A stretch of 64,000 nucleotides of DNA, from the IMG/VR virus record IMGVR_UViG_3300026116_000035. One strand, given 5' to 3'. Shown in pieces: positions 38,593 through 61,422 of this stretch. The notes under the pieces are model-generated. The model made no database searches. It saw only the letters and a program-made list of their open reading frames with translations, and was not told the origin of the DNA. A program made the position numbers and the translations under genes. This DNA is from a virus. Lineage: Duplodnaviria > Caudoviricetes. Every line of letters begins with the position of its first letter. Position 1 is the stretch's first letter.

Positions 38593-39693
38593 ATGAAGGT
38601 AAAAATACAACAATTTTTATTTGGTAAAAATCATAGTTGGAGTGTAGTTGGAAAAGAAATTGGCCGAGAATTAATTCATCGCGGTCATGAAGTTCATTTT
38701 ATTTCTACTGATGGAATTAATAAAGAATTTATAGATTCTGATCTAGCTAAATATATTAAATATTATCCAGATAATAATTATGATATAAATTATTCTTATA
38801 CCGCCCCAAAGAATTTTATTAATTATTTAAATGGAAATAAAGGAATTAGATTAGGATGCTGGAATTATGAATGGCCGTATATGCCGCGAACTTTTGTTCA
38901 AGCTATAGCGTCTAAAAATAATGTAGATAAATTTTTACCATCATCTAAATGGTTTTATGATATTTGTTTGCAAAATAAAATTCCAGAAGAAAAACTTTGT
39001 TTAATGCCTCATGGTATTGATGTTGATAAATTTATTAACGCTGTACCAATGCAATTAAAAACTGATAAAAAAATTAAAATATTAATTAATGTCACTCAAT
39101 TACATATAAGAAAAAATTTACCAGGTACATTAAAAGCTATTGGAGAAGCATTAAATAAAAATGATGATGTATGTTTGGTATTGAAGGTTTCAGATACTAA
39201 ACCAAAAATGGCATTTGAATTATCTTTTTCGCAAGTTTTTAATGAATTTAATAAAAAATATCCAAATCATGTAGAATGTTTAATATTAAAAGAATATATT
39301 CCAAATATAGAATGTTTATATAAAGCTTGTGATATTTTATTTTTATTAAGTCATGCTGAAGCTTATTCTTTAACTCATGCAGAAGGTTTAATTTCTGGGC
39401 AGGTGGTTTTTTCTAGTAATTATGGAGGAGCCTTAGATTTTTTAAATGATAATAATTCATTTTTGATTCCAGGTAAAATGGTGAGAGCCCCTACTTTATC
39501 TCAATATTGGGAACCTAATGTTTTGAATGGACATTTTGAACCTGATGTAAAAATTGCCGCTGAAAAACTACGATATTGTATAGATAATTTTGAAACTGTT
39601 AAAAAAGAAAAATTATCATTTGTAACTAAAAATGATATAGATAATTTTAGATGGGGCAAACAAGTTGATATTTTAGAAGGATTAGTTAAATGA
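38593..39693 (+). CDS. GT-B glycosyltransferase (GT4-like)
   Basis: HSWSVVGKEIGRELIHRGHEV; PHGIDVDKF; RKNLPG; LYKACDILFLLSHAEAYSLTHAEG (Ex7E motif). Confidence 0.85.
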   Translation: MKVKIQQFLFGKNHSWSVVGKEIGRELIHRGHEVHFISTDGINKEFIDSDLAKYIKYYPDNNYDINYSYTAPKNFINYLNGNKGIRLGCWNYEWPYMPRTFVQAIASKNNVDKFLPSSKWFYDICLQNKIPEEKLCLMPHGIDVDKFINAVPMQLKTDKKIKILINVTQLHIRKNLPGTLKAIGEALNKNDDVCLVLKVSDTKPKMAFELSFSQVFNEFNKKYPNHVECLILKEYIPNIECLYKACDILFLLSHAEAYSLTHAEGLISGQVVFSSNYGGALDFLNDNNSFLIPGKMVRAPTLSQYWEPNVLNGHFEPDVKIAAEKLRYCIDNFETVKKEKLSFVTKNDIDNFRWGKQVDILEGLVK

Positions 39694-40433
39694 AAGTATC
39701 TATAATAATACCTGTATTTAATAATTGGAATTTAACTAAAGCTTGTTTAAATGATTTATCTAAATTACCTGATGATCATGAAATTATTTTAGTTGATAAT
39801 GGATCTACAGATGAAACTAAAAATATATTAAATTTATCTAAAAATCAATTACCAGTTAATTTTGTTTTAATTAGAAATGAAGATAATTTAGGATTTGCTA
39901 AAAGTTCAAATCAAGGAGCTAAAATAGCAAAAGGTGAATATTTAATATTTTTAAATAATGACATTAGGGTTAAAAAAGATTTAAGTAATTGGACAAATTT
40001 ATTAACTAAAGTAGCTGAAAATGATTGTTTGGTTAGTCCTACAGTAGGTTTATTAAATGCTAGCTTTAATTTTATAAATGAAAATAATATTAGAGAAAGT
40101 GATGATATAATAAATAATGTAGATGAATTTAAATATTATAATCGATATCCAAATTCAATTATTTATTTAAGTGGATGGTGTTTATGTGCTAAAAAAGAAA
40201 TATTTAATAAATTAATAATAAATGATTATGATGGACCGTTTACTGAAGAATTTTTTACTTATTTTGAAGATACTGATTTAAGTATTCGGGCTAAAAAATT
40301 AAATATAAAAAAGGCTCAAGTATATATTCCATTAGTACATTTTGGAAGAATGACAAGTACAAAAGTAGGATTACAAAGTTTATATAGAGTAGCAAGGGAA
40401 AAATTCATAAATAAATGGAAGAACCAACTTTAG
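39690..40433 (+). CDS. GT2 glycosyltransferase
   Basis: VSIIIPVFN; ILVDNGSTD; NLGFAKSSNQG; FLNND; YFEDTDL. Confidence 0.9.
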   Translation: MKVSIIIPVFNNWNLTKACLNDLSKLPDDHEIILVDNGSTDETKNILNLSKNQLPVNFVLIRNEDNLGFAKSSNQGAKIAKGEYLIFLNNDIRVKKDLSNWTNLLTKVAENDCLVSPTVGLLNASFNFINENNIRESDDIINNVDEFKYYNRYPNSIIYLSGWCLCAKKEIFNKLIINDYDGPFTEEFFTYFEDTDLSIRAKKLNIKKAQVYIPLVHFGRMTSTKVGLQSLYRVAREKFINKWKNQL

Positions 40434-40558
40434 AAAATCAAATATATTTTATATGTAGTGTATTTATGAGGATAGTATTATTTTCATTATTTGGCTTATT
40501 TTTCTGTATATATGTAATATTGATCCTTATATTGGCTATAAAATTATTATTTCCATGA
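40415..40558 (+). CDS. 47-aa hydrophobic small ORF (not in the track)
   Basis: MEEPTLENQIYFICSVFMRIVLFSLFGLFFCIYVILILILAIKLLFP; fills a 176-nt gap; its stop overlaps the ATG of a 20-aa ORF (40555-40617). Confidence 0.3.
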   Translation: MEEPTLENQIYFICSVFMRIVLFSLFGLFFCIYVILILILAIKLLFP

Positions 40559-40609
40559 CTTTATTAGGTGCTGTTATTGGGGTTGGTGATGTTTTGAAGA
40601 GGATGAGTA

Positions 40610-41437
40610 ATGGTTAATTTGCACGTATTTACTTTATCATGGAATGGTTTAGATAAATTAAATAAATTAAAAACTGGTTTATTTGATAATTTAAATTACA
40701 TAAAAGAAAATAAAAATATTAATTATTTATGGAATATACGTGATAATGGAAGTAAAGATAATACAGTAAAAGAAGTTAATTCATGGATTTCTGAAGGTTT
40801 ACCGATTAATCTTACAGAAGTTGGACATAATCGATTAAATTTTTCACAGGGAATGAATTGTATTTTTAAAAATATCATTTATTCTGATAATGATTTAATA
40901 TTATTGTTAAATAATGATATTACATTTGAAGATAATAAATCACTTTTTAATATGTTGAATTTAATGAAAGACGATGTTGGAATTGTGGGTTCTAAATTAT
41001 TATTTACAGGAACTAATAAATTACAACATGCTGGAATTGTATATTCAAATTATCGTGGTGGTAATGCTTGGAATTATCGAACTGGAGAAATTGATGATAG
41101 TGATGCTTCAAAAAATCGATATTTTCAAGGAGTGTCTGGAGCTGTATTATTAACTAAAGCTAAAATTTATGAAGAAGTAAATGGATTATCAGAAGATTTA
41201 CATTGGGCTTTTGATGATTGTGATTATGGTTTAAAAATCAAACAATTAGGTAAAAAAATTATATATTGTGGAGATACTAAAATTTTTCATGAAAATTCAG
41301 CTTCATTAAAAAAGAATCCGGTTAATACTTTATTTTTAAATGAAAATTTAAGAATATTTAAAACTAGGTGGTTTGGCAAATATGAAATTGATCATGATAA
41401 GTATTTAAAAAATAAAAATTATAATGAAATTAAATGA
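40610..41437 (+). CDS. GT2 glycosyltransferase
   Basis: RDNGSKD; NFSQGMN; LLNNDI; LQHAG; VSGAVLL; AFDDCDYGL. Confidence 0.88.
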   Translation: MVNLHVFTLSWNGLDKLNKLKTGLFDNLNYIKENKNINYLWNIRDNGSKDNTVKEVNSWISEGLPINLTEVGHNRLNFSQGMNCIFKNIIYSDNDLILLLNNDITFEDNKSLFNMLNLMKDDVGIVGSKLLFTGTNKLQHAGIVYSNYRGGNAWNYRTGEIDDSDASKNRYFQGVSGAVLLTKAKIYEEVNGLSEDLHWAFDDCDYGLKIKQLGKKIIYCGDTKIFHENSASLKKNPVNTLFLNENLRIFKTRWFGKYEIDHDKYLKNKNYNEIK

Positions 41438-42390
41438 GTGTTTGTTATTTTCCTTTTTGTCCTGGTATTCCTTGGCAATTAAATTCAAGTAGAGTAGTCC
41501 AACCTACATTAAATAGTGAAATTTGGTTTAAAGCTATAAATGATAAAAATCCTATAATTACTTGTTTTGGTGGATTATTTGAAACTTTTTTTGCTTTATC
41601 TTATGCAGAAGCTTTAAATAAATTAATACCCACCAAAAAATTAATATTTAATGGCAATCCTACATTTAATAAATTAATTAGTTTAAATGGTTTAGCCACT
41701 TCGGGAAATTTAATTTCTAAAAGTGAAGTTGAACAATATCCATTACCATTATTTTTCGATCAAGAAAATAATGTTTATTTTAATTGTTTATTTAATTATT
41801 TAAAAATTTATAATAATATTAATGTTTACGCATACAAAAATTTAAAAGCATTAAGTAAACAAATATTTATAAATTCATGTTTACCTTGGAATATTAATTA
41901 TATACCTAAATTAAGAAACTTAATAGAACCACCTGAATTTGCTAAATGGAAATTATCTAAAAAATTTAATATAGATAAGCCCTTTGTATTAATTTTTCCA
42001 GATAAAACAGGATTATCTGAGCATCCACAATCTGCATTAAAATGGTCAATAAATGATATTAAATCATTTATATCAATGATTTATGGTTCTGGAATGGAGT
42101 CAGTAATTGTAACAAAAAATATTGGAAGATATACAGGAATTAATAGTTTGGTTATTGAGCCAAATTTAGAGCATATTTTTTATTTAATTGAAAAATGTGG
42201 CGTTATATTAGCAGAAGAGATAGATTTTTTATTAATCAGTTTAATGATTTCGAAAAATGCAACAGTGGTTAGTAGGAAAAATAAATATCAATATTCTATT
42301 AAATCTAATAAAAAATTTTATAAAACTGATATAAAAATAATTGAAAGTAAAAAATTAATTCCATTTGAAGTTTATAAAGCAATTAAATAA
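41434..42390 (+). CDS. Divergent GT9 (heptosyltransferase)-like protein
   Basis: CFGGLFETFFALSYAEALNKLIP resembles the GxGD...alk..P motif, and KPFVLIFPDKTG...KWSIND resembles kpyvvihpg...krW. Confidence 0.45.
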   Translation: MSVCYFPFCPGIPWQLNSSRVVQPTLNSEIWFKAINDKNPIITCFGGLFETFFALSYAEALNKLIPTKKLIFNGNPTFNKLISLNGLATSGNLISKSEVEQYPLPLFFDQENNVYFNCLFNYLKIYNNINVYAYKNLKALSKQIFINSCLPWNINYIPKLRNLIEPPEFAKWKLSKKFNIDKPFVLIFPDKTGLSEHPQSALKWSINDIKSFISMIYGSGMESVIVTKNIGRYTGINSLVIEPNLEHIFYLIEKCGVILAEEIDFLLISLMISKNATVVSRKNKYQYSIKSNKKFYKTDIKIIESKKLIPFEVYKAIK

Positions 42391-42413
42391 TTTGATTGTA
42401 AATTAAAGGTAGT

Positions 42414-43166
42414 ATGAAAATAGCAGAATCTGTAATTTCTATTATGATGGTCACTTATAATCGTTTAGAATTAACTAAACAAACTATAACTAATATTTAT
42501 GAAACTGTAAAAACTCCATTTGAATTTGTTATTATTGATAACGCTTCTACTGATGGAACCATAGAATATTTAAATGAATTAAATAAACAATATAATAATA
42601 TACATTTAAAATTTAATAAAATAAATAAGGGAATTGGTTGGGGAAGGTCTCAAGCTCTTTTATTGGCGGACACATTAAATACAGAATGGTATGTTACTAT
42701 AGATAATGATGTTTTATTTCATAGTGGCTGGTTAGATGAGTGTATTGAAATATTAACTCATAATAAACATTTTGGAGCTATTGGTGTAAGTTTTGAACCT
42801 ACAGTGTATCCAATTATTAAGTCAAATGGATATGAATTTGAATATAAATCTAAAGGTAATTTAGGAACAGCATGTATGGTTTTTCATAAATCATTACATA
42901 AAATGATTGGATTTTTTAATACTACATTTGATAAATATGCTCATGAAGATGCCGATTGGGGAAATAGAGTTGTTTTTGCTGGATTAAAATTAGGATATAT
43001 TAAAACTCATGGTACTCATATAGGTGAAGGGGTAAATGATCAAGGCACTTATCGTGAGTTTAAAAATAAACAACATCAAGATAACCTTCAAAAATATTAT
43101 AAAGATTATACATTATATGCTTCTGGTAAAAAATCATTATATATTCCATTTAAGGATAATGAATGA
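42414..43166 (+). CDS. GT2 glycosyltransferase
   Basis: ISIMMVTYNRLELTK; IIDNASTDGT; TIDND; HEDADW. Confidence 0.9.
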   Translation: MKIAESVISIMMVTYNRLELTKQTITNIYETVKTPFEFVIIDNASTDGTIEYLNELNKQYNNIHLKFNKINKGIGWGRSQALLLADTLNTEWYVTIDNDVLFHSGWLDECIEILTHNKHFGAIGVSFEPTVYPIIKSNGYEFEYKSKGNLGTACMVFHKSLHKMIGFFNTTFDKYAHEDADWGNRVVFAGLKLGYIKTHGTHIGEGVNDQGTYREFKNKQHQDNLQKYYKDYTLYASGKKSLYIPFKDNE

Positions 43167-45244: not shown

Positions 45245-45250
45245 GGTATA

Positions 45251-46207
45251 ATGACTGAAAAAGTAAAAGTTAATTTAATTTATACTCCCCAAAATGTTGA
45301 TGCTACATCTCCTAGATTTCAAAATGAATTTGGTGAATTATGGATGAATGCACATCATAAATCAGATATGCATAATATTAGTATGAGTTTTTATTCAGCT
45401 AATTATCCAAACCCGATAGCTTTAGGTGATTCAATATATGTAATTGAACCTAAATGTGTTTCAGAGCGAGATTATGAAATTGAATTTTTAGAACGATTTA
45501 AATATATTTTTACTTGGGCTGATAATGCTTTTAAAAATACTAGAATTCAAAATAAAATAATTCCATTAAATCATCCAAGTTGTTGGGGTATGGATAAACA
45601 AGGTTTTGAAAATAGAAAAAAACAATGGGCTTCTTGGAATAATAGAAGGGATGAAATTACTTTTATTGCTAATAATAAAGCTTCAACACATAGAACAGAA
45701 TTATATAGTGTTAGAGTTATGTTAGCTCAATGGCTAAATAATAATTCAGAGAAATATAAAGTTAGTTGGTATGCTCAAGGAAATATTACTCAGCCATATT
45801 TTAAAGGTACAATTGGGGAAAAATCAGAAGTATTAAATAATGTCAAATTTTCTATTTGTACTGAAAATTGCTATGATGAAAAATATAGCTCTAATTATTT
45901 TACTGAGAAAATGCCTGAAGTTTGGTTTTCAGGAGCCGTTCCAATTTATACAGGATGTTATAATATAGATAAATTTGGCTTTCATCCGGATTCTTACATT
46001 GATTTACGAAAATTTATGGATCATAAAGCAATTAAATATAGAGAATTATTAAATGAAATAAATTCTTTTAATGAAGAAAAATACAATAAATATTTAGAAG
46101 CTGTTAATTATAATATATATAATGCAGATTTATTTAATATAATTTCGGAAGAAAAAGTCATGAGTAAAATGATTGAAACTTTTTATAAGGAAAAGAATGG
46201 ACTATAA
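45251..46207 (+). CDS. GT10 alpha-1,3-fucosyltransferase-like
   Basis: KFSICTENCY...NYFTEKMPEVWFSGAVPIYTG matches the alpha-1,3-FucT motif. Confidence 0.85.
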   Translation: MTEKVKVNLIYTPQNVDATSPRFQNEFGELWMNAHHKSDMHNISMSFYSANYPNPIALGDSIYVIEPKCVSERDYEIEFLERFKYIFTWADNAFKNTRIQNKIIPLNHPSCWGMDKQGFENRKKQWASWNNRRDEITFIANNKASTHRTELYSVRVMLAQWLNNNSEKYKVSWYAQGNITQPYFKGTIGEKSEVLNNVKFSICTENCYDEKYSSNYFTEKMPEVWFSGAVPIYTGCYNIDKFGFHPDSYIDLRKFMDHKAIKYRELLNEINSFNEEKYNKYLEAVNYNIYNADLFNIISEEKVMSKMIETFYKEKNGL

Positions 46208-46946
46208 AAATTTTGTAATTATTATTCCTTCATATAATAATGCTAAATGGTATGAGCAAAATGTAATTTCTGCTATGCAACAAAATTATCCTAAAGATAA
46301 ATTTAGAGTAATATATACCAATGATGCGTCTATAGATGATACTGGTACTTTAGTTAATAATTTAATTGAAAAACATAAATGGGATAACATTAAATTAATT
46401 AATAATATTGAAAGATTAGGTGCTTTACATAATATATATAATATGATTCATTCTTGTAATGATGATGAAATTATTGTTGATTTGGATGCAGATGATACTT
46501 TAGCCGGCCCACATGTATTAGAAAGATTAAATCAAGAATATCAAAATCCTAATGTATGGATGACGTGGGGTTCCTATTTAGATTCTTGTAATATGACTCG
46601 TGGATGTTGTAAACCATATGAGCAAACTGTTATTGATAGGAATGCTTATCATGTTGTTCCCTGGAGATGTTCTCATTTACGAACAAGGATAGCTAAATTA
46701 TTTAAATTAGTTAAAAAAGAAGATTTAATGTATCAAGGTAAATTTTTTATGTCCGCTTGGGATCTTTCTTATCAATTAAGAATGTTAAGTATGGCTGGTG
46801 GGAGATTTTCTTATATAAATGATATTTTGTATATTTATAATAATGATAATCCTATTTCTGATTATAAAGTAAGAGCACAAGAACAAGCTTTTTTTGATCA
46901 GTATATTAGACGTCAAAAACCTTATGAAAAAATAGATTCATTATGA
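46197..46946 (+). CDS. GT2 glycosyltransferase
   Basis: IIIPSYNN; TNDASIDDT; VDLDADD; SAWDLSY. Start moved to ATG 46197 (SD AAGG). Confidence 0.85.
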   Translation: MDYKNFVIIIPSYNNAKWYEQNVISAMQQNYPKDKFRVIYTNDASIDDTGTLVNNLIEKHKWDNIKLINNIERLGALHNIYNMIHSCNDDEIIVDLDADDTLAGPHVLERLNQEYQNPNVWMTWGSYLDSCNMTRGCCKPYEQTVIDRNAYHVVPWRCSHLRTRIAKLFKLVKKEDLMYQGKFFMSAWDLSYQLRMLSMAGGRFSYINDILYIYNNDNPISDYKVRAQEQAFFDQYIRRQKPYEKIDSL

Positions 46947-47671
46947 GTATTACTTTTTCTGATTTAGGTAAAATGGGACGCTTGGGTAATATATTATTTC
47001 AAGCATCTGCTACTATTGCTTTAGCATTAGATAATAATGTAGATTATCAATTTCCTAAATTTTGGTCTGATCGTAAATATTTTAATATACCAGAAGAAAA
47101 ATTTGTAGATAAATTATATTATTTAAATAATTACAAAGAATTAAATTACCATTATAATAAAATAATATTTAAAGATAATTTAAATTTAAATGGATATTTT
47201 CAAAGTTATTATTATTTTAATTCTCAAGATAAAATAATAAAAAAATTATTAACACCTAATATTATAATTAATAAACAAGATTATGTTAGTTTGCATGTTA
47301 GGCGAACTGATTATTTAATTCACAATAATTGTTATAAAATATTAAATAGAAATAATTATTATGATAAAGCAATGGAAATTTCTAGTGGAAAGAAATTTTT
47401 AATATTTTCTGATGATATAAATTGGTGTAAACAAAATTTTACTGGTAATGAATTTGATTTTGTAGAGGGTAATAATGCACCAACAGATTTAAAGTTAATG
47501 GCAAATTGTTTGGGTGGAAATATAATTGCAAATAGTAGTTTTTCATGGTGGGGAGCCTATCTTAATGAAAATATTAATAATTGCGTTATATCTCCTAATG
47601 ATTGGTTTGGTCCTGAGTTGTCAATGAATAATACTAAAGATTTATATTTGCCGAGTTGGATAAGGATTTAA
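46943..47671 (+). CDS. GT11 alpha-1,2-fucosyltransferase-like
   Basis: GRLGNILFQ; GYFQS; VSLHVRRTDY; FSDDINWCK; NSSFSWWGAYL. Confidence 0.92.
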   Translation: MSITFSDLGKMGRLGNILFQASATIALALDNNVDYQFPKFWSDRKYFNIPEEKFVDKLYYLNNYKELNYHYNKIIFKDNLNLNGYFQSYYYFNSQDKIIKKLLTPNIIINKQDYVSLHVRRTDYLIHNNCYKILNRNNYYDKAMEISSGKKFLIFSDDINWCKQNFTGNEFDFVEGNNAPTDLKLMANCLGGNIIANSSFSWWGAYLNENINNCVISPNDWFGPELSMNNTKDLYLPSWIRI

Positions 47672-47676
47672 GAGAA

Positions 47677-48657: not shown

Positions 48658-48665
48658 GGAATATT

Positions 48666-51121: not shown

Positions 51122-51138
51122 TATTGTTATATTAAGAT

Positions 51139-51945: not shown

Positions 51946-52297
51946 AAGACCTTATACACTTATTATAGATATAGATGGAACATTAATTAAACATTCTGGT
52001 GATATTTGTCATCAATATACAGAAGAAATTGAAATTTTGCCAGGTGTTATTGAAAAATGGAAAGAATTTGATATTGCAGGTCATAATATAATATTAATAA
52101 CTGGAAGAAGAGAAAGTAATAGAAAATTTATTGAAGAAAAATTACAAGATGCAGGATTGTTTTGGGATCAATTAATAATGGGTGTCGGGGGAGGAAATCG
52201 GATTTTAATTAATGATCTAAAACCTTTAAGTGAAGAACCTACAGCAATAGCTATAAATGTAAGACGAAATACAGGATTAAAGGATATAAAAATATGA
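51932..52297 (+). CDS. Small HAD-superfamily phosphatase
   Basis: Motif I DIDGT; motif II ITGR; IND at motif IV. Confidence 0.8.
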   Translation: MKMNKRPYTLIIDIDGTLIKHSGDICHQYTEEIEILPGVIEKWKEFDIAGHNIILITGRRESNRKFIEEKLQDAGLFWDQLIMGVGGGNRILINDLKPLSEEPTAIAINVRRNTGLKDIKI

Positions 52298-52635
52298 AAT
52301 TTGTAGAAAAACCTTGGGGTTCTGAAAAAATCATTATATTAAATAATATTGTATTAAAAGAATTATTTATGAAGGCCGGTTGTAAATGTAGTTTACAATA
52401 TCATAATTTTAAAAATGAAATTATCAGAGTTTTAAGTGGTAAATTAAAATTATCTTATTCACCAAATAAAGAAACATCATTAATTAATTTAGAATTATCG
52501 CCTGGTGATAGTTTTGCTATTGAACACGGAATTATACATAGAATGGAGGCTATTGAAGACTCAATTTATATTGAAGCATCATCTAATGAATTAGATGATG
52601 TTATTCGACTTGAGGATTCATATGGCCGAGTATAA
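52294..52635 (+). CDS. Cupin protein (mannose-6-phosphate isomerase type II-like)
   Basis: EKPWG; CSLQYH...E; GDSFAIEHGIIHRM. Confidence 0.85.
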   Translation: MKFVEKPWGSEKIIILNNIVLKELFMKAGCKCSLQYHNFKNEIIRVLSGKLKLSYSPNKETSLINLELSPGDSFAIEHGIIHRMEAIEDSIYIEASSNELDDVIRLEDSYGRV

Positions 52636-54187
52636 AGTTCTTTTAACAGCCTCCGGTATTGGTCAAAGACTCGGCGATTTAACTAAATATACTAATAAAT
52701 CTTTAGTTAAAATTGGTAAAAAACCAGCTATAAGCTATATAATCGAACGATATCCAGATGATGTAGAAATTATTGTTACATTAGGTTATTTCGGAAATCA
52801 AGTAAAAGAATTTTTAACATTAGCTTATCCTGAAAAAAAGTTTAATTTTATTAATGTTGATAAATATGAAGGTTACGGCAGTAGTTTATTATATTCAATG
52901 TTATGTGCAAAAGACGAATTACAATGTCCATTTATATTTCATGCTTGTGATTCTATTATTTTAGATGAACCTATTCCATCATTAGAAGATAATTGGCTTG
53001 GCGGGTATAATAAAACTGATAGTGCTCAATATAGAACATTTAATATTGAAAATGAATTTGTTAAAAAAATCAATGAAAAAGGTGAAATGTCCTATGATTT
53101 TGAATACATAGGCGTTTGTGGTATAAAGGATTTTGATTTATTCTGGAAAACAGCTGAAAAAATTTATTTTAATTATTCAGAAGACAGTTCATTATCTGAT
53201 TGTCATATATTTAAATTTATGATTAAAAAAATAATATTTAAATACTACATATTTAATTCATGGTTAGATATTGGAAATATTTATTCTTTAAAGAAAGCGC
53301 GAGAATTTATTTATGATAAATTTGAAATTTTAGATAAATTAGATGAATCAATTTTTATAATTAATAATTTTGTTATTAAATTTTTTTATGATGTTAATAT
53401 AGTTAAAAATCGCGTTATTCGTGGTGAAAGTTTACTTCCAAACGTTCCTAAAATAACAGGATCAACAAATCATTTTTATAAATATGATTATGTTGAAGGT
53501 AAATTATTTTCTAAATCAGTTAATGAAGTTAAATTTAAACAATTTTTAGAATGGGCTAATAAAGAAATATGGTCAAATAAAATTATAGAAAATTTTAAAG
53601 AAAGCTGCTTTGATTTTTATATTACGAAAACTTATAATAGAGTGAATAAATTTTTAATAAATAATAATATTATTGATAAACAAGATTGCATTAATGGAAT
53701 TTTAGTACCGTCTATTGCTGATTTAATGAAATTAGTAAAAGAATATAATATCATTGACGGAATACCAGTTAATTTTCATGGAGATTTTATTTTGGATAAT
53801 ATTATTGAAACTGATGATGGATTTATGCTTTTAGATTGGCGACAAGATTTTTCAGGAAAAACTTCTGGCGGAGATTTATTTTATGATTTAGCCAAATTAA
53901 ATCATAATCTTACAGTGAATCATGATGTAATTAATAAAAATTTATTCGAAATACATGTAAATAAAGACAATTCTATTAATTGTGATATTTTAATTAATTA
54001 TAAATTAGTTGAATGTAATAAAATTCTTAAAGAATTTATTAAAAATAATAAATATGATTATAAAAAAATACAAATAATTACAGGATTAATTTGGATTAAT
54101 ATGAGCCCCTTACATCATTATCCATTTGATCAATTTTTATTTTATTTTGGTAAATATAATTTATTTAAAGCTTTAGGAATGGAATGA
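52622..54187 (+). CDS. Nucleotidyltransferase fused to an APH/choline-kinase-like phosphotransferase
   Basis: N-term LLTASGIGQRLGDLTKYTNKSL; C-term HGDFILDNI, LLDWR, YDLAKL. Start at ATG 52622. Confidence 0.85.
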   Translation: MAEYKVLLTASGIGQRLGDLTKYTNKSLVKIGKKPAISYIIERYPDDVEIIVTLGYFGNQVKEFLTLAYPEKKFNFINVDKYEGYGSSLLYSMLCAKDELQCPFIFHACDSIILDEPIPSLEDNWLGGYNKTDSAQYRTFNIENEFVKKINEKGEMSYDFEYIGVCGIKDFDLFWKTAEKIYFNYSEDSSLSDCHIFKFMIKKIIFKYYIFNSWLDIGNIYSLKKAREFIYDKFEILDKLDESIFIINNFVIKFFYDVNIVKNRVIRGESLLPNVPKITGSTNHFYKYDYVEGKLFSKSVNEVKFKQFLEWANKEIWSNKIIENFKESCFDFYITKTYNRVNKFLINNNIIDKQDCINGILVPSIADLMKLVKEYNIIDGIPVNFHGDFILDNIIETDDGFMLLDWRQDFSGKTSGGDLFYDLAKLNHNLTVNHDVINKNLFEIHVNKDNSINCDILINYKLVECNKILKEFIKNNKYDYKKIQIITGLIWINMSPLHHYPFDQFLFYFGKYNLFKALGME

Positions 54188-55191
54188 ATAGAAATGGTTT
54201 AAAAGAAATTAAATTATATGTCGGTCCAATGACAAAAAATGTTGTTGATGCAGTTATTGAATTTGCGAATAAATTTAATATTAAAATAGGGTTTATTCCA
54301 TCTAGAAGGCAAATCGAATTTGATCAATCTGGATATGTTAATAATTGGACCACCAGAACTTTTATGCAATATATTAGGTCAAAAACCAATTTAATAGGTT
54401 TAGAAAGAGATCATGGTGGTCCTAATCAAGGTTTAACTAATGATGATGGATTTGCTAGTTTATTTCAGGATACTCAGAATTTTGATATTGTTCATATTGA
54501 TGTTTGGAAAAAATATCCCAATTTTGATGATGGTGTTAAAAAAACTATAGAATATATTAAATATTGCCATAATGTAAATCATCTTACTTTGTTTGAAGTT
54601 GGTACTGAGCAAAGTATTAGGCCATTTAATTTATTCGAATTAGATAATTTTTTATTTGAACTCCAGCATAATTTAACTAATGAAGAATTTAGTAAAATAC
54701 TTTATTGTGTTATTCAATCTGGCACTTCTTTAAAAGGAACAATTAATACTGGAAAATATGATTCTGTAAAATTAAAAGATATGTGCTATATTGTAAATAA
54801 ATATAATATATTATCTAAAGAACATAATTCCGATTTTGTTGATATAAATGAAATATATGATAGATATAATAATGGATTAAATGCTATTAATATTGCTCCA
54901 GAATTTGGACAGATTGAAACTAATTGCATTTTGGAATTAATTAATAATAATGCTTATTTATTAAATATATTTTATACAATATGTCTAAATTCTAATCGAT
55001 GGGTTAAATGGGTAGCTTCAAATTTTAAGCCTGAAGATAATAAAATTGAATTAATTAAAATCTGTGGACATTATGTATTATCTGATCCGAAAATGAAAGA
55101 AATTATAAGTAAATTTCCTGAATTGTCTGATTTAGTCAAACAAGGTGTATTTGAAAAGTTATATAGTATATTAACTCCAAGGATATCATGA
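54184..55191 (+). CDS. TIM-barrel protein resembling the GatZ/KbaZ/UxaE ketose epimerase family
   Basis: IPSRRQIE...GY; LERDHGGP; YCVIQSGT; KEHNSD; INIAPEFG. Confidence 0.55.
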   Translation: MNRNGLKEIKLYVGPMTKNVVDAVIEFANKFNIKIGFIPSRRQIEFDQSGYVNNWTTRTFMQYIRSKTNLIGLERDHGGPNQGLTNDDGFASLFQDTQNFDIVHIDVWKKYPNFDDGVKKTIEYIKYCHNVNHLTLFEVGTEQSIRPFNLFELDNFLFELQHNLTNEEFSKILYCVIQSGTSLKGTINTGKYDSVKLKDMCYIVNKYNILSKEHNSDFVDINEIYDRYNNGLNAINIAPEFGQIETNCILELINNNAYLLNIFYTICLNSNRWVKWVASNFKPEDNKIELIKICGHYVLSDPKMKEIISKFPELSDLVKQGVFEKLYSILTPRIS

Positions 55192-55820
55192 TAAAAGGAA
55201 TTTTATACGATTTAGATAATACTTTATGTTATTGTGCTGATTGGCATAAATTAGCCTTAAATAAAGCATTAAAAGAAATATGTGGATTTGAAATTTCAGA
55301 AGATGAACATATTTCTACATTTAATGGATTACCAACCAAAAAGAAATTAGATTTATTAATTAATCAAAGACGAATTAAAATAAATGATTATGATTTAATT
55401 TCTCAAAAAAAACAAGAATATACAAAAGATATAATTTTTGAAGAAGCAATTGTAGACCCAATAAAAGTTAAATTACATCGGCAAAATAAATTAAATGGAT
55501 TAAAATCAGCATGTGTTACTAATAGTATTACTGAAACAGCAGCATTAATTTTAGAGAAAACTGGACAATTACAATATATGGATTTTTTAATTTCTAATGA
55601 AGTAGTTAAATATCCTAAACCGCACGGAGAAGGATATATTATCTCTATGATTAAATTAGGAATTTATCCTTCTGAAACTCTTATCGTAGAAGATAGTCCT
55701 GTTGGAATTCAAGCTGCAAAATCTACTGGAGCTCATGTCTGGGAAGTTAAAGATTCTATTGAAGTTACTTATGAAAATTTCCAGCAATTTATAAGTTCAA
55801 TAAATATAAGAAAGGTATAA
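55188..55820 (+). CDS. HAD phosphatase (beta-phosphoglucomutase-like)
   Basis: YDLDNTL; VTNS; YPKPHGEGY; IVEDSPVG. Confidence 0.9.
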   Translation: MIKGILYDLDNTLCYCADWHKLALNKALKEICGFEISEDEHISTFNGLPTKKKLDLLINQRRIKINDYDLISQKKQEYTKDIIFEEAIVDPIKVKLHRQNKLNGLKSACVTNSITETAALILEKTGQLQYMDFLISNEVVKYPKPHGEGYIISMIKLGIYPSETLIVEDSPVGIQAAKSTGAHVWEVKDSIEVTYENFQQFISSINIRKV

Positions 55821-56546
55821 ATGGCTTTAAATATTTTGGTGCCTATGGGTGGAAAGGGCCGGAGGTTCGCAAATCTTGGGTACACATTCCCTAAACCATT
55901 AATAGAAGTTCAAGGTAAACCTATGATTCAAGTTGTTGTTGAAAATTTGAATTTAGATGGAAAGTATATATTTTTGGTTTCTAGAGAACATTATACAAAA
56001 TATGCTTTAAATTATTTATTACCATTAATAACAAAACCATATCAATGTGAAATTATTATTGAAGAACCTCCTATTTATGGAGCAGCTTATGCTTGTCTTT
56101 TAGCCAAACATTTAATAAATAATGATGATAATTTACTTATAGCTAATTCTGATCAATGGATAGATTATGATCCGGAAAGTTTTTTAAAATCAGTTAAAAA
56201 TGTTGATGGAGCTATTTTAACATTTTATGGTACACATCCTAAATGGAGTTTTAGTAAAATTAATGAAGAAACTGGTTTTATTTCCGAAGTGGCAGAAAAA
56301 CAACCAATTAGCACAAATGCCAATACAGGAATATATTATTGGAATAAAGGTAGCGATTTTATTTCATCAGTAGAAGAAATGATTGCTGATGAATTTAAAG
56401 TGAACAATGAATATTATGTAGCTCCTTCTTATAATTATTTAATTAATAAAGGTAAAAAAATAATTAATTATCCAGTTAAACAAATGTTTGGAATTGGAAC
56501 TCCAGAAGATTTACAAAATTTTTTGCAATTAAATATTAAGGTTTAA
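55821..56546 (+). CDS. Sugar-phosphate nucleotidyltransferase
   Basis: ILVPMGGKGRRF...PKPLIEV; ANSDQ; HPKWSF; AEKQPIS; EYYVAPSYN; GTPEDL. Confidence 0.9.
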   Translation: MALNILVPMGGKGRRFANLGYTFPKPLIEVQGKPMIQVVVENLNLDGKYIFLVSREHYTKYALNYLLPLITKPYQCEIIIEEPPIYGAAYACLLAKHLINNDDNLLIANSDQWIDYDPESFLKSVKNVDGAILTFYGTHPKWSFSKINEETGFISEVAEKQPISTNANTGIYYWNKGSDFISSVEEMIADEFKVNNEYYVAPSYNYLINKGKKIINYPVKQMFGIGTPEDLQNFLQLNIKV

Positions 56547-56549
56547 TAA

Positions 56550-57215
56550 ATGTTGATATTGACACGAACAGCTTGTTTAGGTGGGGAAGTTATAAATTAT
56601 AAAATTGGTGGAAATCATGATTTTTATAATCAGCAAAAAGTTAGAGTTGATATGTTTAATGAAGTTGTAAGTGGGAATACAATTAAACCTAAAAAATCTG
56701 AAATATTACCTTGGTTAGCTGATGCATCTGATACTGGTGGAGTTTATTCACAATCAGAAGAATTTAGATGGTTTACTATTAATAGTAAACCAAACTATTT
56801 AATTATGGATAATTATTCCGAACTTGTTGATAAACAAATAATTCATAAAGATGGTTGGTCTTTTTGTGGTGTTTATGGTGATTTTAAACATGAGGCATTT
56901 ACAAGTAGTACTTTTATTGATGGCAGTCTTTTACCTCTTGATAAGATTTATGATTCTTATGATAATTTTTTCCAATTTGTAAAAAACAAATGGAATATTC
57001 CTATTATTTTTATTCATTTTCCTACAATTTTTGATCATAGAGAAATGTATATAAATCAGGGAATAGCAATAACTGATGCTTTAAATATACTTGCTCCTAA
57101 ATATAATATACAAAATATTCATGCAGACTTATCAGAAATAGAAAAACAAGATAGTAATTATTATCATTTTACAAAAAGAACATTTAAAAACTTGGCTGAT
57201 AAGATTATTATTTAA
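56550..57215 (+). CDS. Hypothetical protein, possibly SGNH-like
   Basis: YLIMDNYSELVD and the terminal DSNYYHF resemble SGNH-type D-x-x-H regions; weak. Confidence 0.4.
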   Translation: MLILTRTACLGGEVINYKIGGNHDFYNQQKVRVDMFNEVVSGNTIKPKKSEILPWLADASDTGGVYSQSEEFRWFTINSKPNYLIMDNYSELVDKQIIHKDGWSFCGVYGDFKHEAFTSSTFIDGSLLPLDKIYDSYDNFFQFVKNKWNIPIIFIHFPTIFDHREMYINQGIAITDALNILAPKYNIQNIHADLSEIEKQDSNYYHFTKRTFKNLADKIII

Positions 57216-57231: not shown

Positions 57232-57921
57232 ATGTTAAAATATAATGATTTAATAAATATAATGAATGAAACTGAATATAAATTAGTTCCATTTTATAAA
57301 GGATTACGTATGGAAACTCATATGAATCCTGTTTCTATTGCCGAACCAGAATTTAATTTTATTTATGATTTTATTTTAAACAATAAATTAAAAAAAGGTT
57401 ATGAAGTTGCTACTGCTTTTGGTATTTCAATGTTGGCGGCAGGATTAGCGTTTAAAGAAACAAATGGTAAATTAGTTACAATGGATGCTTATATAGAAGA
57501 GCAATTTAATAGTTGCTCTTCATATGATGAAAAACACACAATTACTTATCAAAATTCAGATGGATTTAAAACTGCCACTAAATTAATTGAAATATTTAAA
57601 TTAGAAAATACAGCATCATTAAATGTAGGATTTAGTCCAACAGACACTTTTAATGTAATTAAAAATACATTCGATAATGAAAAATTAGATTATGTTTTTA
57701 TAGATGCTTTACATACAGAAGAAGCGGTAATAAAAGATATTGAAGCAGTATTACCATTTTTAGATGAAAAATTTGTTTTATTTTTGCATGATGTACATTG
57801 TTTTGAATCTGGTAAAGTTCAAAATTATGTTTACGAAAAATTTGGAACCGCTTGGACTGTAGCTAAAGGTTGTGAACATCCTGGCGAAGGTTACAATTTA
57901 TCTTATATAAATAAATTATAA
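57232..57921 (+). CDS. Class I SAM-dependent methyltransferase (Methyltransf_24-like)
   Basis: YEVATAFGIS; LDYVFIDALHTEEAVIKD; LFLHD. Confidence 0.85.
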   Translation: MLKYNDLINIMNETEYKLVPFYKGLRMETHMNPVSIAEPEFNFIYDFILNNKLKKGYEVATAFGISMLAAGLAFKETNGKLVTMDAYIEEQFNSCSSYDEKHTITYQNSDGFKTATKLIEIFKLENTASLNVGFSPTDTFNVIKNTFDNEKLDYVFIDALHTEEAVIKDIEAVLPFLDEKFVLFLHDVHCFESGKVQNYVYEKFGTAWTVAKGCEHPGEGYNLSYINKL

Positions 57922-58483: not shown

Positions 58484-59491
58484 TTGATGAAGAATGTTGA
58501 AGAAAATAAAGTTTGTAGTATTACTGGAATAAACGGCCAAACTGGTAGTTTTTTAGCTGAATTATTACTAGAAAAAGGATATAAAGTTTATGGCATGGTT
58601 AGAAAAAGCTCTGTCTTTAACACGGAAAGAATTGAAAATATTTATAATCATCCAAATTTAAAACTTATTTATGGCGATTTGGCTGACACATTAAGTGTTG
58701 TAGATTTTATTACTCAAACTAGGCCTGATTATTTTTTTAATTTAGGTGGATTATCACATGTTAGAACCAGTATAGATATGCCTTTATCAGCTATTGATGT
58801 TGATGGTCTAGGTGTTGTTAGATGCTTAGAAGGGATTAGAAAATATAGTTCTCATACACGATTTTTACAAGCATCAACTTCAGAATTATTTGGTAATTCT
58901 CCTGCACCACAAAATGAACTTACCCCTATGGTTCCATGTAGCCCTTATTCAATAGGAAAATTGACTGGATATAGTGCTGTTAATTATTATAAACTCGCAT
59001 ATGGAATGTTTGCTGTAAATGCAATTAGTTTTAATCATGAATCATATCGCAGAAATCCAACATTTGTAACAAGAAAAATTACAAAAACATTATCAGAAAT
59101 AAAACTCGGATTAAAAACTGAATTAAATTTAGGAAATTTAGTCTCAAAACGCGATTTTTCTCATGCTTCGGACGTTGCTGAAGCTATGTATTTAATGATT
59201 ACTGCAGAAAATCCGGAAAATTATGTAATATCGAGTGGAGAAACTTATTCAATTGAACAATTTTTAGATTTAGTAGCTGCAAAATTAGAATTAAATTGGA
59301 AAGATTATGTTAAATTTGATAAACGATTGTTGAGACCTGTAGAAGTTAATTGTCTTTTAGGAGATAGTACTAAAATTCGTACAGAACTTTCATGGAAGCC
59401 AAAATATAATATTAATTCATTAGTGGATGAAATGGTTGAATATGATTTAAAATTGGCTAGACGGCAATTATTATTAAAAAATAATGAATAA
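58484..59491 (+). CDS. gmd: GDP-mannose 4,6-dehydratase
   Basis: TGINGQTGSFLAELL; YGDLAD; LGGLSHV; QASTSELFG; SPYSIGK; FNHES...FVTRKI; GNLVSKRD. Confidence 0.95.
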   Translation: MMKNVEENKVCSITGINGQTGSFLAELLLEKGYKVYGMVRKSSVFNTERIENIYNHPNLKLIYGDLADTLSVVDFITQTRPDYFFNLGGLSHVRTSIDMPLSAIDVDGLGVVRCLEGIRKYSSHTRFLQASTSELFGNSPAPQNELTPMVPCSPYSIGKLTGYSAVNYYKLAYGMFAVNAISFNHESYRRNPTFVTRKITKTLSEIKLGLKTELNLGNLVSKRDFSHASDVAEAMYLMITAENPENYVISSGETYSIEQFLDLVAAKLELNWKDYVKFDKRLLRPVEVNCLLGDSTKIRTELSWKPKYNINSLVDEMVEYDLKLARRQLLLKNNE

Positions 59492-59500
59492 AAGGAATAA

Positions 59501-60457
59501 ATGAGAGTTTTAATTACCGGTTCCAATGGCATGCTTGGAAGAAATTTAATATCTAAATTATTACAATCAAGTTCCAGTCATACATTTTTAACTCCATCTT
59601 CTAGTGAATTAGATTTAAGTAATTCTGGTCATACTTGGGATTATTTTTACAAATTTAAACCTGAAATAATAATTCATTTAGCCGCCTTTGTTGGAGGAAT
59701 TGGATTAAATAAAAAACAACCAGCCGATTTAACTCATTTAAATTTAAAAATGACTGTTAATTTATTTGACGCCATACGAGAACATAAGACAAAATATTTC
59801 TATGGCATGGGTTCAGTTTGCTCTTATCCTAAATTTCTACCCCACGGTTTAAATAAATTTTCAGAAGAAGATATGTGGGGTAAACGTAGCGAATTTACCA
59901 ATTTCGGATATGGCGAAAATAAGAAAATGATGATCGTTGAATTCGAAACCCATAAAAGACAATATGGTTTAAAAGGTGCTAATTTAGTTTTATGTAATAT
60001 GTATGGACCTCACGATCATTTTTTTGATCTAGAAAATTCCCATGTTATACCCGCCTTAATAAGAAAATTTTATGAAGCTAAATTAAATAATTTACCACAA
60101 GTTGAATGTTGGGGAACAGGTAAGGCAACTAGAAGTTTCCTTTATGTTGAAGATGCTTGTGATGCTATTTCAAAAGCTTTAAATATGAAATTAGATACAG
60201 ATGAATATATAAACATTGGTCCCGAAGATGATATATCAATATTAGATTTAGCTAATATGATCTCTGAATTAGTTGATTATAAGGGAAATATAGTTTTTTC
60301 TGGAGAATTAGATGGACAACCAAAACGTTTATTATCTGTAGAAAAGGCTAAATCAATATTAAATTGGAAAACTGAAACTGAATTAAAAATTGGATTAATG
60401 AAAACTATCGAGTTTTATAAAGAAAATAGATTAAATTATGTAAGTGAATCAAAATGA
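59501..60457 (+). CDS. fcl: GDP-L-fucose synthase (epimerase/reductase)
   Basis: TGSNGMLG; HLAAFVGGI; GSVCSYP; YGENK; NMYGPHD; SHVIPALIRK; WGTGKATR. Confidence 0.92.
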   Translation: MRVLITGSNGMLGRNLISKLLQSSSSHTFLTPSSSELDLSNSGHTWDYFYKFKPEIIIHLAAFVGGIGLNKKQPADLTHLNLKMTVNLFDAIREHKTKYFYGMGSVCSYPKFLPHGLNKFSEEDMWGKRSEFTNFGYGENKKMMIVEFETHKRQYGLKGANLVLCNMYGPHDHFFDLENSHVIPALIRKFYEAKLNNLPQVECWGTGKATRSFLYVEDACDAISKALNMKLDTDEYINIGPEDDISILDLANMISELVDYKGNIVFSGELDGQPKRLLSVEKAKSILNWKTETELKIGLMKTIEFYKENRLNYVSESK

Positions 60458-61422
60458 GTAAAATTAATTTATTAGTAACTGGGTCATCTGGATTTATATA
60501 TGGAAATTTTATTCGATATATGCTTAAAAATTCTAATGATTATAAAATTTCCAGTATAGATGATATTAAAGATGTTAAATTAATTAATACCATTTACGCT
60601 AATAAAGGTCATCAATTTTATATGGGTGACATTACAAATCAACATTTTGTAAATAATGTTTTTGAGATTGAACGTCCAGACATAGTAATTCATGGAGCGG
60701 CAGAATCATTTGTAGATAAATCTTTAATTGCCGGCCAAGAATTTGTAAAATCAAATGTATTAGGAACTCAAATTTTAATTGATGTAGCTTTAAAATATAA
60801 AGTTAAAAAATTTATTTATGCATCAACTGATGAGATATACGGAGCTTTAAATAATGAAAATGAACCTTCTTGGACTGAGGAATCTCCATTAGCTCCACGA
60901 AATCCGTATTCTGCCACAAAAGCTGCTGGAGAATTATTAGTTAATGCAGCTCATATTACTCATGGATTAAATTATATAATAACTAGAGCTTGTAATAATT
61001 ATGGTCCAAGACAGCCAAGAAGAAATTTAATTCCAGTAACAATTGGAAATATATTAGAAGGAAAAGAAGTTCCAATATATGGACAAGGTTCTCAAATTAG
61101 AGAATGGATATATGTGCAAGATATGTGTTCAGCTATAAAAACAATTATTGAAAATAATACTATTAATGAAATATATAATATATCTTCTGGACAAGAATTT
61201 TCAAATATAGAAGTTTGTAATGAAATTTGTAATATACTTGGAAAAGGTCATAATTTATTAAAATTTGTAACTGATCCACGAGGAAATGGTCATGATTTTA
61301 GATATTCAGTAATATGCGATAAATTGAAAAAACTCGGATGGAAACCACAATATAATTTTAAAAAAAATGGGCTCGAGGCTTGCGTAAATTGGTATGTAAC
61401 AAACAATTGGTTTTTAAAATAA
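60454..61422 (+). CDS. rfbB: dTDP-glucose 4,6-dehydratase
   Basis: HGAAESFVD; STDEIYG; PRNPYSATK; NNYGPRQ; YGQGSQIREW; DPRGNGHDFRY. The NAD motif is altered (GSSGFIY). Confidence 0.88.
   Translation: MSKINLLVTGSSGFIYGNFIRYMLKNSNDYKISSIDDIKDVKLINTIYANKGHQFYMGDITNQHFVNNVFEIERPDIVIHGAAESFVDKSLIAGQEFVKSNVLGTQILIDVALKYKVKKFIYASTDEIYGALNNENEPSWTEESPLAPRNPYSATKAAGELLVNAAHITHGLNYIITRACNNYGPRQPRRNLIPVTIGNILEGKEVPIYGQGSQIREWIYVQDMCSAIKTIIENNTINEIYNISSGQEFSNIEVCNEICNILGKGHNLLKFVTDPRGNGHDFRYSVICDKLKKLGWKPQYNFKKNGLEACVNWYVTNNWFLK

Follow-up and report, generated by a model that had tools for sequence, protein, structure and literature searches.

A glycan-synthesis island fixed between tail-fibre and tubulin genes in a megaphage lineage: a putative virion glycosylation system

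In the glycosylation systems of mycobacteriophages, soluble phage glycosyltransferases (GTs), joined in some cases by a methyltransferase, are encoded in or beside the structural genes; such systems have no genes for export, and their targets are virion proteins that are glycosylated in the cytoplasm. The spore crust/coat of Bacillus subtilis (CgeB, SpsA-L) is a protein surface that is glycosylated in the mother-cell cytoplasm without a flippase. Virion glycosylation is established in mycobacteriophages, for which the work of Freeman et al. (2023, Cell Host Microbe 31:1216), as cited in PMC12619734, describes O-glycosylation of the Che8, Corndog and Myrna types. It is also established in giant viruses, where the fibril glycans of Megavirinae and the capsid N-glycans of chloroviruses depend on autonomous donor synthesis and GTs encoded in clade-specific variable clusters, and where virion surface proteins are glycosylated in the cytoplasm with methylated or rare bacterial-like sugars (PMC10117803, PMC9614988). 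Here we describe a glycan-synthesis island at positions 38593–61422 of a 64,000-nucleotide stretch of phage DNA (the window), which corresponds to bases 7981–71980 of the 84.6-kb IMG/VR virus record IMGVR_UViG_3300026116_000035. A sequence-only reading of the window had called this locus a putative virion glycosylation system and had regarded its complexity as unusual. The latter opinion could not be upheld: the cyanomyovirus S-SCSM2R is reported to carry 13 GTs, including GT10, GT11, GT1 and GT2 (PMC12801897), and jumbo-phage clusters of GT and nucleoside diphosphate (NDP)-sugar genes (Iyer et al. 2021) have been reviewed and interpreted as host-surface modification (PMC7824862). Multi-GT islands in large phages are already known, and the present one is a large, well-anchored further case with several uncharacterised enzymes.

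Like the cyanomyovirus clusters (P-SSM2, S-SCSM1, S-SCSM2R) and the jumbo-phage clusters, the island gives a single phage numerous GT paralogues from several families, together with NDP-sugar epimerases/dehydratases, nucleotidyltransferases, HAD phosphatases, cupins and O-methyltransferases, and its content is polymorphic between related phages (PMC7824862). It differs from the cyanomyovirus clusters in belonging to an apparently phage-G-like soil megaphage rather than to T4-like marine phages, in running without interruption for 23 kb at a constant place, flanked by the tail-fibre and tubulin genes, and in containing no KDO or PgaA-type envelope genes. For the cyanomyovirus and jumbo-phage clusters, too, the acceptor is a proposed one. 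With the mycobacteriophage systems the island shares phage GTs beside structural genes and the lack of export genes; those systems, in contrast, have two to four GTs and no donor-synthesis genes, and belong to actinobacterial siphoviruses. With giant viruses it shares virus-encoded donor synthesis and GTs in variable clusters, and its GT4 has a weak PDB match to chlorovirus B736L; however, giant viruses infect eukaryotes, their acceptors and glycans are known, and the homology extends only to generic GT folds. The likeness to the spore-crust system is at the family level only, consisting of a CgeB-like domain (PF13524 in the protein encoded at 47656, and structurally in that at 43163), an SpsA-like GT2 and an RmlB-type dehydratase, whereas that system is cellular and without fucose or carbamoyl arms.

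The island consists of 25 open reading frames (ORFs) of at least 100 amino acids (aa), all on the plus strand and together covering, in summed length, 98.7% of the interval (Table 1). About 24 co-oriented genes chained by ATGA overlaps had been expected, and all nine start/stop overlaps are present (39690, 41434, 43163, 46943, 50354, 52294, 54184, 55188 and 60454). The genes encode ten soluble GTs of at least six families, donor-synthesis enzymes, tailoring enzymes of three kinds and three proteins without assigned function, and the view that the island is self-contained for donors and GTs is supported. The locus is best explained as a lineage-conserved, phage-autonomous glycan assembly line acting in the host cytoplasm. 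As to what the glycan is attached to, we infer from the arguments set out below that the acceptor is the phage's own virion proteins, with a probability of roughly 40%.

Seven of the ten GTs score above the Pfam cut-off and three are leads from structure or language-model comparison, so that the anticipated number of about ten and the guessed families (GT2, GT4, GT9-like, GT10-like, GT11 and CgeB-like) are borne out, the three leads being leads only. The soluble GT2 encoded at 39690 has PDB relatives of a generic GT2 kind, among them chondroitin synthase, TarS and SpsA. Of the two putative fucosyltransferases, the GT11 is above the Pfam cut-off and the GT10-like protein is a language-model lead, matched to virus clusters in which 52–80% of the members carry PF00852. 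The 693-aa protein encoded at 43163 has 18 homologues, none of them with a name. An AlphaFold model built from 17 homologues (pLDDT 75) predicts three N-terminal β-sandwich domains resembling carbohydrate-binding modules (CBMs) or lectins, followed by a C-terminal GT-B (Rossmann) domain of CgeB/GumK/SenB-like type. With Foldseek, its PDB matches are CBM51 tandems or CBM6-type modules, SenB and GumK, and its AFDB matches are YkvP/CgeB GT-like proteins.

Table 1. Coordinates of the island genes and of the flanking genes in the window, with the evidence for each assignment.
Feature	Position	Strand	Evidence
Last tail/baseplate-distal fibre-like protein, 964 aa, dockerin-type Ca-binding domain	34670..37564	+	Dockerin_1 E 1e-7
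2H/LigT-like phosphoesterase	37577..38167	+	Pfam 2_5_RNA_ligase2, AKAP7_NLS, LigT_PEase; weak Acb1 (anti-CBASS) match
GT4-family (GT-B)	38593..39693	+	Glycos_transf_1 34.7 bits, cut-off 26.4; phrog_2170
GT2 (GT-A), soluble	39690..40433	+	Glycos_transf_2 85.7 bits; no transmembrane segment
GT2, divergent	40610..41437	+	Glycos_transf_2 25.7 bits, cut-off 23.3; orthologues in G001, G003, G004
GT9-like (heptosyltransferase-fold, GT-B), lead only	41434..42390	+	Atlas TM-score 0.66 to Glyco_transf_9 cluster; feature score 0.96; orthologues in G001, G002, G003
GT2	42414..43166	+	Glycos_transf_2 70 bits; orthologues in G001 and G003, 53–54% identical
Predicted CBM-tandem/GT-B fusion, 693 aa	43163..45244	+	AlphaFold and Foldseek; no Pfam match
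GT10-like (alpha-1,3-fucosyltransferase-like), lead only	45251..46207	+	Atlas feature score 0.97; no Pfam match
GT2	46173..46946	+	Glycos_transf_2 48.9 bits
GT11 (alpha-1,2-fucosyltransferase family)	46943..47671	+	Glyco_transf_11 76.7 bits, cut-off 23.9
CgeB-like GT (Glyco_trans_1_2)	47656..48657	+	PF13524 64.6 bits, cut-off 25; orthologues in G001, G002, G003
NodU/CmcH-type O-carbamoyltransferase, glycan tailoring	48777..50357	+	Carbam_trans_C 209.9 bits, Carbam_trans_N 62 bits; NodU model E 4e-56
Two conserved proteins without assigned function, 255 aa and 268 aa (50354, 51139)	50354..51945	+	
Conserved NDP-sugar module, four genes (next four rows)	51899..55191	+	
Small HAD-IIIA-like phosphatase	51899	+	
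Cupin/PMI-like isomerase	52294	+	
Nucleotidyltransferase and APH-type kinase fusion, 530 aa	52595	+	
Class-II-aldolase/GatZ-like TIM-barrel protein	54184	+	Atlas TM-score 0.86 to GatZ/KbaZ cluster
HAD beta-phosphoglucomutase-family, candidate hexose-phosphate mutase	55188 (block 55188..56546)	+	HAD_2 78 bits; NCBIfam subfamily match
Sugar-1-phosphate nucleotidyltransferase, 241 aa	55821 (block 55188..56546)	+	NTP_transferase 65.8 bits; NCBIfam subfamily match
SGNH/GDSL-fold protein	56550..57215	+	Structure model pLDDT 94 from 24 homologues
Class I S-adenosylmethionine-dependent methyltransferase (Methyltransf_24)	57232..57921	+	PF13578 45.1 bits
Phage protein without assigned function, 154 aa	57984..58448	+	phrog_34507 E 3e-23; orthologues in G001 and G003
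GDP-L-fucose arm: Gmd (58484) and Fcl-like SDR (59501)	58484..60457	+	GDP_Man_Dehyd 341.8 bits
RmlB-like NDP-glucose 4,6-dehydratase, last island gene	60454..61422	+	TIGR01181 332.8 bits, cut-off 365
TubZ/PhuZ-like phage tubulin, conserved right anchor, not glycan synthesis	61432..62868	+	Tubulin and TubZ-like_C

The donor-synthesis and tailoring genes noticed alongside the GTs were confirmed by Pfam and NCBIfam matches. The island encodes the de novo pair for GDP-L-fucose, a GDP-mannose 4,6-dehydratase (Gmd) and a GDP-4-keto-6-deoxymannose epimerase/reductase (Fcl), for which the best models are TIGR01472 (343.6 bits) and NF047922 (210.7 bits); both scores are under the NCBIfam equivalog cut-offs, so the two proteins are divergent members. 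In the four-gene module at 51899–55191, the 530-aa fusion protein carries an N-terminal GxGxRL motif of nucleotidyltransferases and a C-terminal HGDxxxxN...DW loop of the APH/choline-kinase type; both motifs are conserved in two distant orthologues, and the APH match is weak. The small HAD, fusion and aldolase-like genes also adjoin one another, at 33–51% identity, in the unrelated Marine virus AG-345-E15 (L033, MH319741.1, 11889–18235), in which a cupin gene lies near the module and a NodU carbamoyltransferase and a GT11 lie further along. Because of this recurrence, and because the Atlas clusters of the aldolase-like and GT10-like proteins are almost wholly viral, the module looks like a phage-borne NDP-sugar pathway in its own right, apparently undescribed. 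A single-protein IMG/VR scan with the aldolase-like protein returned no matches.

Among the tailoring enzymes, the SGNH/GDSL-fold protein encoded at 56550 reaches an AFDB TM-score of 0.90 to an SGNH/GDSL hydrolase, with PatB and acetyl-xylan esterases as its structural PDB matches; a PDB search with its sequence gave no match. Cys9 is invariant at the position of the SGNH catalytic Ser and His206 is nearly invariant, and the modelled fold suggests that the protein is probably a glycan O-acyl transferase or esterase. Its family is known only from metagenomic and phage contigs, with two paralogues in G001. The methyltransferase encoded at 57232 is, judging by its family, probably responsible for O-methylation of the glycan. 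The proteins encoded at 50354 and 51139 have no match in Pfam, NCBIfam, PHROG or PDB, the former having orthologues in G001 and G003 and the latter in G001 only; a PDB sequence search with the protein encoded at 57984 gave no match either.

The evidence from relatives starts from the last tail gene, which forms a conserved left anchor of the island: its orthologues, 42–50% identical, are found in five IMG/VR contigs of 43–336 kb, and in all five a GT4 orthologue lies a short way downstream. The GT4 gene at 38593, the first gene of the island, is the only island gene conserved in all five relatives (39–42% identity). A survey of relatives for co-occurrence with tail genes had been suggested earlier, and the co-occurrence holds in every relative found. 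In all four contigs that reach the tubulin gene (G001–G004), a glycan island fills the space from the tail gene to tubulin; it measures 4.7 kb in G004, 16.8 kb in G002, 24 kb in G001 and 26.8 kb in G003, with the tubulin orthologue directly past it. The order tail-fibre gene, island, tubulin is a fixed genomic landmark in this lineage, the relatives of which span 28–40% GC and probably have different hosts. G001 and G003 contain orthologues of most island genes of the window, mostly with 35–60% identity as against 42–62% for the tail proteins. G002 retains the GT4, the GT9-like protein, the CBM-GT fusion, the CgeB-like GT and Gmd and gains a DegT aminotransferase, and G001 gains an FkbM methyltransferase. 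The minimal island of G004 is made up only of GT4, GT2, a gene without assigned function, GT2 and an RmlB-like gene, the last being retained as an orthologue 51% identical to that of the window. The GT4 of G004 starts 39 bp past the tail gene, which leaves no room for an obvious separate promoter.

Is the locus native to the phage? The contig is phage DNA, a megaphage fragment, and not a piece of bacterial chromosome, since genes for baseplate, tubulin, UvsW, DnaB, a sigma factor and an intein-split ribonucleotide reductase are present; the possibility of a bacterial chromosome had been named as one that would overturn the sequence-only reading. CheckV estimates the record as 20% complete, a fragment of an approximately 420-kb genome. 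It is hardly conceivable that the locus is a host polysaccharide locus on a bacterial chromosome or a prophage, with its export genes elsewhere in the cell genome. The 336-kb relative G001 is indeed labelled 'provirus' in IMG/VR; against this, the 84.6-kb contig holds only phage-type genes, all on one strand, G001 is mostly one-strand coding and without multi-pass transporters, its island is lower in GC than the rest of the record yet typical for the phage, and the relatives are virus records of 124–336 kb with the same tail-island-tubulin order. Bacillus phage G appears, from sequence comparison, to be the closest cultured relative, and a distant one: it is the only cultured phage matched by the baseplate protein and the tubulin, with 30% identity over 38% of the query for the baseplate wedge protein and 23% identity for the tubulin, and no glycan genes were found after its baseplate genes.

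The base composition of the island points in the same direction. The GC counts that had been given for two 60-nucleotide samples (6/60 at 47101–47160 and 24/60 at 6001–6060) are exact, and the island is indeed more AT-rich than the tail genes, with a GC content of 25.6% as compared with 29.8%. There is, however, no sign of a separate origin, because GC at third codon positions (GC3) is 11.7% in the island and 11.8% in the tail genes. The gap therefore arises at the first and second codon positions and reflects amino-acid composition, not a foreign origin. By this measure the island is a long-term resident of the phage and not a recent import.

Family searches were made in the present record (G000) and in G001–G004, 907 kb together. 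The priming transferase families PF02397 and PF00953 are absent from all five records, with controls positive in 9 and 12 of 14 genomes, and so are PF01943, PF04932 and PF01061 (flippase, polymerase/ligase and ABC transporter; controls positive). The stated lack of Wzx/Wzy, an ABC exporter and a priming transferase thus holds here and in the relatives. In hydropathy scans, the island proteins showed no transmembrane segment and the whole 84.6-kb contig proved free of multi-pass membrane ORFs; in G001 no transporter-like ORF was seen, only a tape-measure-like protein and small holin-like ORFs giving a transmembrane signal, and the coding-strand ORFs of the relatives' islands contained no transmembrane segments. 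In terms of what defines a surface-polysaccharide locus, the cluster of GT, NDP-sugar and tailoring genes is present, while the priming, flippase, polymerase/ligase and ABC-2 permease genes are absent from the five records. What is expected of virion glycosylation, GTs in or beside structural genes, is found: the GT4 and nine further GTs follow the tail-fibre genes, and this arrangement is kept in the five relatives. The virion acceptor is favoured for three reasons, namely that the island and its GT4 are fixed beside the tail-fibre gene across phages of 28–40% GC, that priming and export genes are absent, and that there are two CgeB-like domains, one of them fused to lectin-like modules.

Several observations weigh against a virion acceptor. 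The records searched represent about 20% of this genome and 78% of that of the best relative. Where the acceptor is undecaprenyl-linked or a teichoic acid, GTs that are soluble or peripheral are the norm, and carriers primed by the host, as well as its exporters, could be used by the phage. The GTs had been described as lacking membrane anchors, and this is correct, but the conclusion drawn from it, that the acceptor is cytoplasmic, does not follow, soluble GTs being normal in lipid-carrier pathways. The tubulin gene starts 10 bp past the island and is followed by replication genes, so that the island is not clearly 'late'. The 17 tail/baseplate proteins of the window, a set without the capsid and tail-tube proteins, proved to have no acceptor motif in common at their C-termini, and no Ser/Thr-rich acceptor motif was found in the window's tail proteins; in mycobacteriophages, acceptor sites at the C-termini of capsid and tail-tube subunits have been shown experimentally. 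A host-surface role is, moreover, the published reading of the cyanophage and jumbo-phage GT clusters (PMC7824862, PMC12801897).

Such a role is the content of the first alternative, the main competitor of a virion acceptor, which we regard as somewhat less likely than the latter. The phage enzymes would extend or re-decorate a host glycopolymer (an O-antigen or capsule repeat, teichoic acid, S-layer or cell-wall polysaccharide) on a host lipid carrier, the product being exported by a host flippase or ABC transporter, and the altered surface would block superinfection or stop released particles from sticking. The inventory of GT2, GT4, GT9-like, GT10, GT11, Gmd/Fcl, RmlB and carbamoyl- and methyltransferases is standard for O-antigen or capsule loci, the solubility of the GTs is normal in such pathways, the content varies among relatives as in serotype loci (DegT in G002, FkbM in G001), and the GT2 enzymes resemble, among other PDB entries, TarS and a teichoic-acid enzyme. 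Yet no priming transferase, flippase, polymerase, ligase or ABC permease occurs in the 907 kb of the five related phages, and a lytic megaphage with ten GTs and complete donor synthesis would still depend wholly on a compatible host pathway. A GT4 fixed past the tail-fibre gene over such a range of GC contents is not what one expects of a host-matched accessory gene, and GC3 indicates long residence in the phage. The original proposal of virion glycosylation is partly supported: phage origin, the absence of export genes in the DNA searched and the linkage to tail genes stand, and the argument from soluble GTs falls.

A second alternative is a different cytoplasmic or soluble acceptor. The sugars would go to a phage or host protein that is not part of the virion, or would form a free product resembling a secondary metabolite (an oligosaccharide or glycoside) that serves host takeover or defence evasion. 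The GT4 has as its best PDB sequence match BshA, an enzyme with a small-molecule acceptor, the resemblance of the 693-aa protein to SenB likewise speaks for a small-molecule GT, and the sugar clusters of jumbo cyanophages have been proposed to make secondary metabolites (PMC7824862). These PDB matches are, however, weak and generic, the island holds no polyketide, nonribosomal peptide synthetase or aglycone-synthesis genes, and ten GTs of several families together with lectin-like modules fit a macromolecule-bound polymer or oligosaccharide better. We consider this alternative improbable.

DNA hypermodification, in which the GTs would add sugars to hydroxylated pyrimidines (5-hydroxymethylcytosine, 5-hydroxymethyluracil or 5-hydroxycytosine (5hoC)) to evade restriction and CRISPR, is more improbable by far. 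Phage GTs akin to lipopolysaccharide/teichoic-acid enzymes do glycosylate DNA, and their clusters, which also hold UDP-sugar synthesis genes, sometimes stand beside structural genes (Pyle et al., bioRxiv 10.1101/2023.12.21.572611; Lee et al. 2026, PMC13326640); poly-arabinosylated 5hoC exists (PMC13326640); and a ThyA-family gene is present in G004, the relative with the minimal island. Unlike the island, these clusters need a ThyA homologue, or a C5-methylase with a TET/JBP dioxygenase, and their products are mono- to trisaccharides (bioRxiv 10.1101/2023.12.21.572611; PMC13326640), not those of ten GTs with carbamoyl, methyl and acyl tailoring. The ThyA family PF00303 is absent from G000, G001 (336 kb, 78% complete), G002 and G003, and the C5-methylase family PF00145 from all five records; in the Tet_JBP (PF12851) search the control was silent, so that search carries no weight on the DNA route. 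An Asn residue distinguishes dUMP-type ThyA enzymes from dCMP hydroxymethylases, which have Asp, and the ThyA homologue of G004 keeps the Asn. It is of the dUMP type, and the genomes searched for these families are partial. The earlier preference for a complex glycan over a DNA-base sugar is upheld to the extent that a simple DNA-base sugar is unlikely.

From the known chemistry of the enzyme families, the following scheme can be proposed. The cupin, the HAD mutase-like protein and the 241-aa nucleotidyltransferase may supply GDP-mannose to Gmd, and Gmd and Fcl would turn it into GDP-L-fucose for the GT11 and GT10-like enzymes, while the RmlB-like enzyme would yield an NDP-4-keto-6-deoxyhexose. 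A second, unusual NDP-sugar would probably be the product of the four-gene module at 51899–55191, which encodes the small HAD, the cupin, the fusion and the aldolase-like protein and holds the four activities of the heptose pathway (isomerase, anomeric kinase, phosphatase and nucleotidyltransferase). The conserved GT4 presumably starts the chain. Lengthened by the other GTs, the chain may become a branched hetero-oligosaccharide bearing fucose, methyl, carbamoyl and acyl groups. In the cytoplasm, ahead of particle assembly or while it proceeds, this product would be put on virion proteins (those of the tail fibres, of the periphery of the baseplate or of the capsid decoration), much as in mycobacteriophages, chloroviruses and mimiviruses and as Bacillus treats its spore crust with CgeB/Sps enzymes. 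Variation in the outer part of the island would then serve to diversify the particle surface. A broader proposal, more tentative still, is that a soil and freshwater megaphage lineage coats its own particles, probably the tail fibres or the capsid surface, with a complex, lineage-variable heteroglycan built wholly by the phage and including an undescribed NDP-sugar pathway shared with unrelated marine phages.

Were this true, no virion-glycosylation system known from a bacteriophage would be more elaborate, and the mimivirus fibril glycans would have a counterpart among bacterial viruses. With a virion acceptor, bacteriophages would join giant viruses in having complex self-encoded surface glycans, with consequences for host recognition, for evasion of recognition by hosts or predators, for how stable the particles are in soil and for how immunogenic therapeutic phages are. 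With the host envelope as the acceptor, the locus would stand as a very large example of host-surface rewriting by a lytic phage that brings no export machinery of its own. Under either, uncharacterised enzymes are gained, namely the lectin-tandem/CgeB-like GT, the Cys-type SGNH enzyme and the kinase/nucleotidyltransferase fusion with its aldolase-like partner, and the tail-fibre/island/tubulin landmark should be useful for finding such loci in megaphage metagenomes.

As for occurrence and host, the stretch is present in rhizosphere and soil metagenomes, no RNA datasets being listed among the sequencing runs that hold it, and an identical 693-aa protein is found on a 390-kb contig as well. For host inference, 185,579 species genomes were searched with a profile of the CgeB-like GT, which turned up no relative, and the nearest cellular relatives of Gmd, at most 47% identical, are scattered over Planctomycetota, archaea and Pelagibacteraceae.

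Signals of expression were sought around the island. A sigma-70 promoter/terminator scan of 37000–56900 gave counts at or below shuffled expectation, and no k-mer of at least 8 bases upstream of the GT4 is common to at least four of six sequences (the window and the five relatives). An intergenic motif, CATATTTATG, standing before three structural genes was rejected, with 23 matches against 22 expected in the window and none before the island.

Some local rearrangements of the island were observed. The GT10-like gene, on the plus strand in the window, is on the minus strand in G001 (L009 7481–8419) and G003 (L011 8450–9355 and 10101–11168), in the latter as a duplicate, which amounts to a single-gene inversion in an otherwise co-linear island. 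A 176-bp non-coding gap (40434–40609) separates two GT2 genes in the window; G003 and G004 have a gene of 337–349 aa there and G001 has no gap, a comparison that suggests that the gap is probably a deletion scar. A 52-codon hydrophobic frame within it was rejected as a gene, as it is not conserved in the relatives. The G003 island contains homing endonucleases (LAGLIDADG at L011 11047–11997; NUMOD3 and TnsA-like at L012 11228–12124), and in both G001 and G003 HNH-like genes related to window positions 7838–8569 are found past the tail gene and ahead of the GT4. GT2 genes are almost confined to the islands in these phages; a GT2 domain far outside the island of G002 (G002:C1:147410-147718) lies inside a 1153-aa ORF, the only large GT-containing protein seen outside the islands.

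The flanks of the island agree with its description as contiguous with the tail genes, baseplate and fibre-like genes lying directly upstream: a tail-tube initiator and a sheath initiator (both below the Pfam cut-off), Baseplate_J (above it) and fibre-like proteins of 1624, 2217 and 964 aa. Between the last tail gene and the island sits the 2H phosphoesterase gene, with a homologue of 24% identity at the same place in G002, which is probably not part of glycan synthesis. Downstream are the TubZ/PhuZ-like tubulin gene, for which a single-protein IMG/VR scan gave no matches, and the genes for UvsW, DnaB, the sigma factor and the ribonucleotide reductase.

The tripeptide DGY occurs 15 times in the structural proteins (window 328–36814) against 1.8 expected, a number reached in 0 of 1000 within-protein shuffles, and 0 times in the enzymes; nothing ties it to glycosylation, and its clusters (5627–5699, 31590–31608 and 36704–36806) suggest repeat units. 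Past the helicase genes there is a 2.9-kb stretch (L002 1743–4682; contig 73442–76381) with many short genes and no ORF of at least 80 aa. The large subunit of the ribonucleotide reductase is split (L002 9087–12894); the break is marked by intein halves and encloses an unrelated 370-aa ORF.

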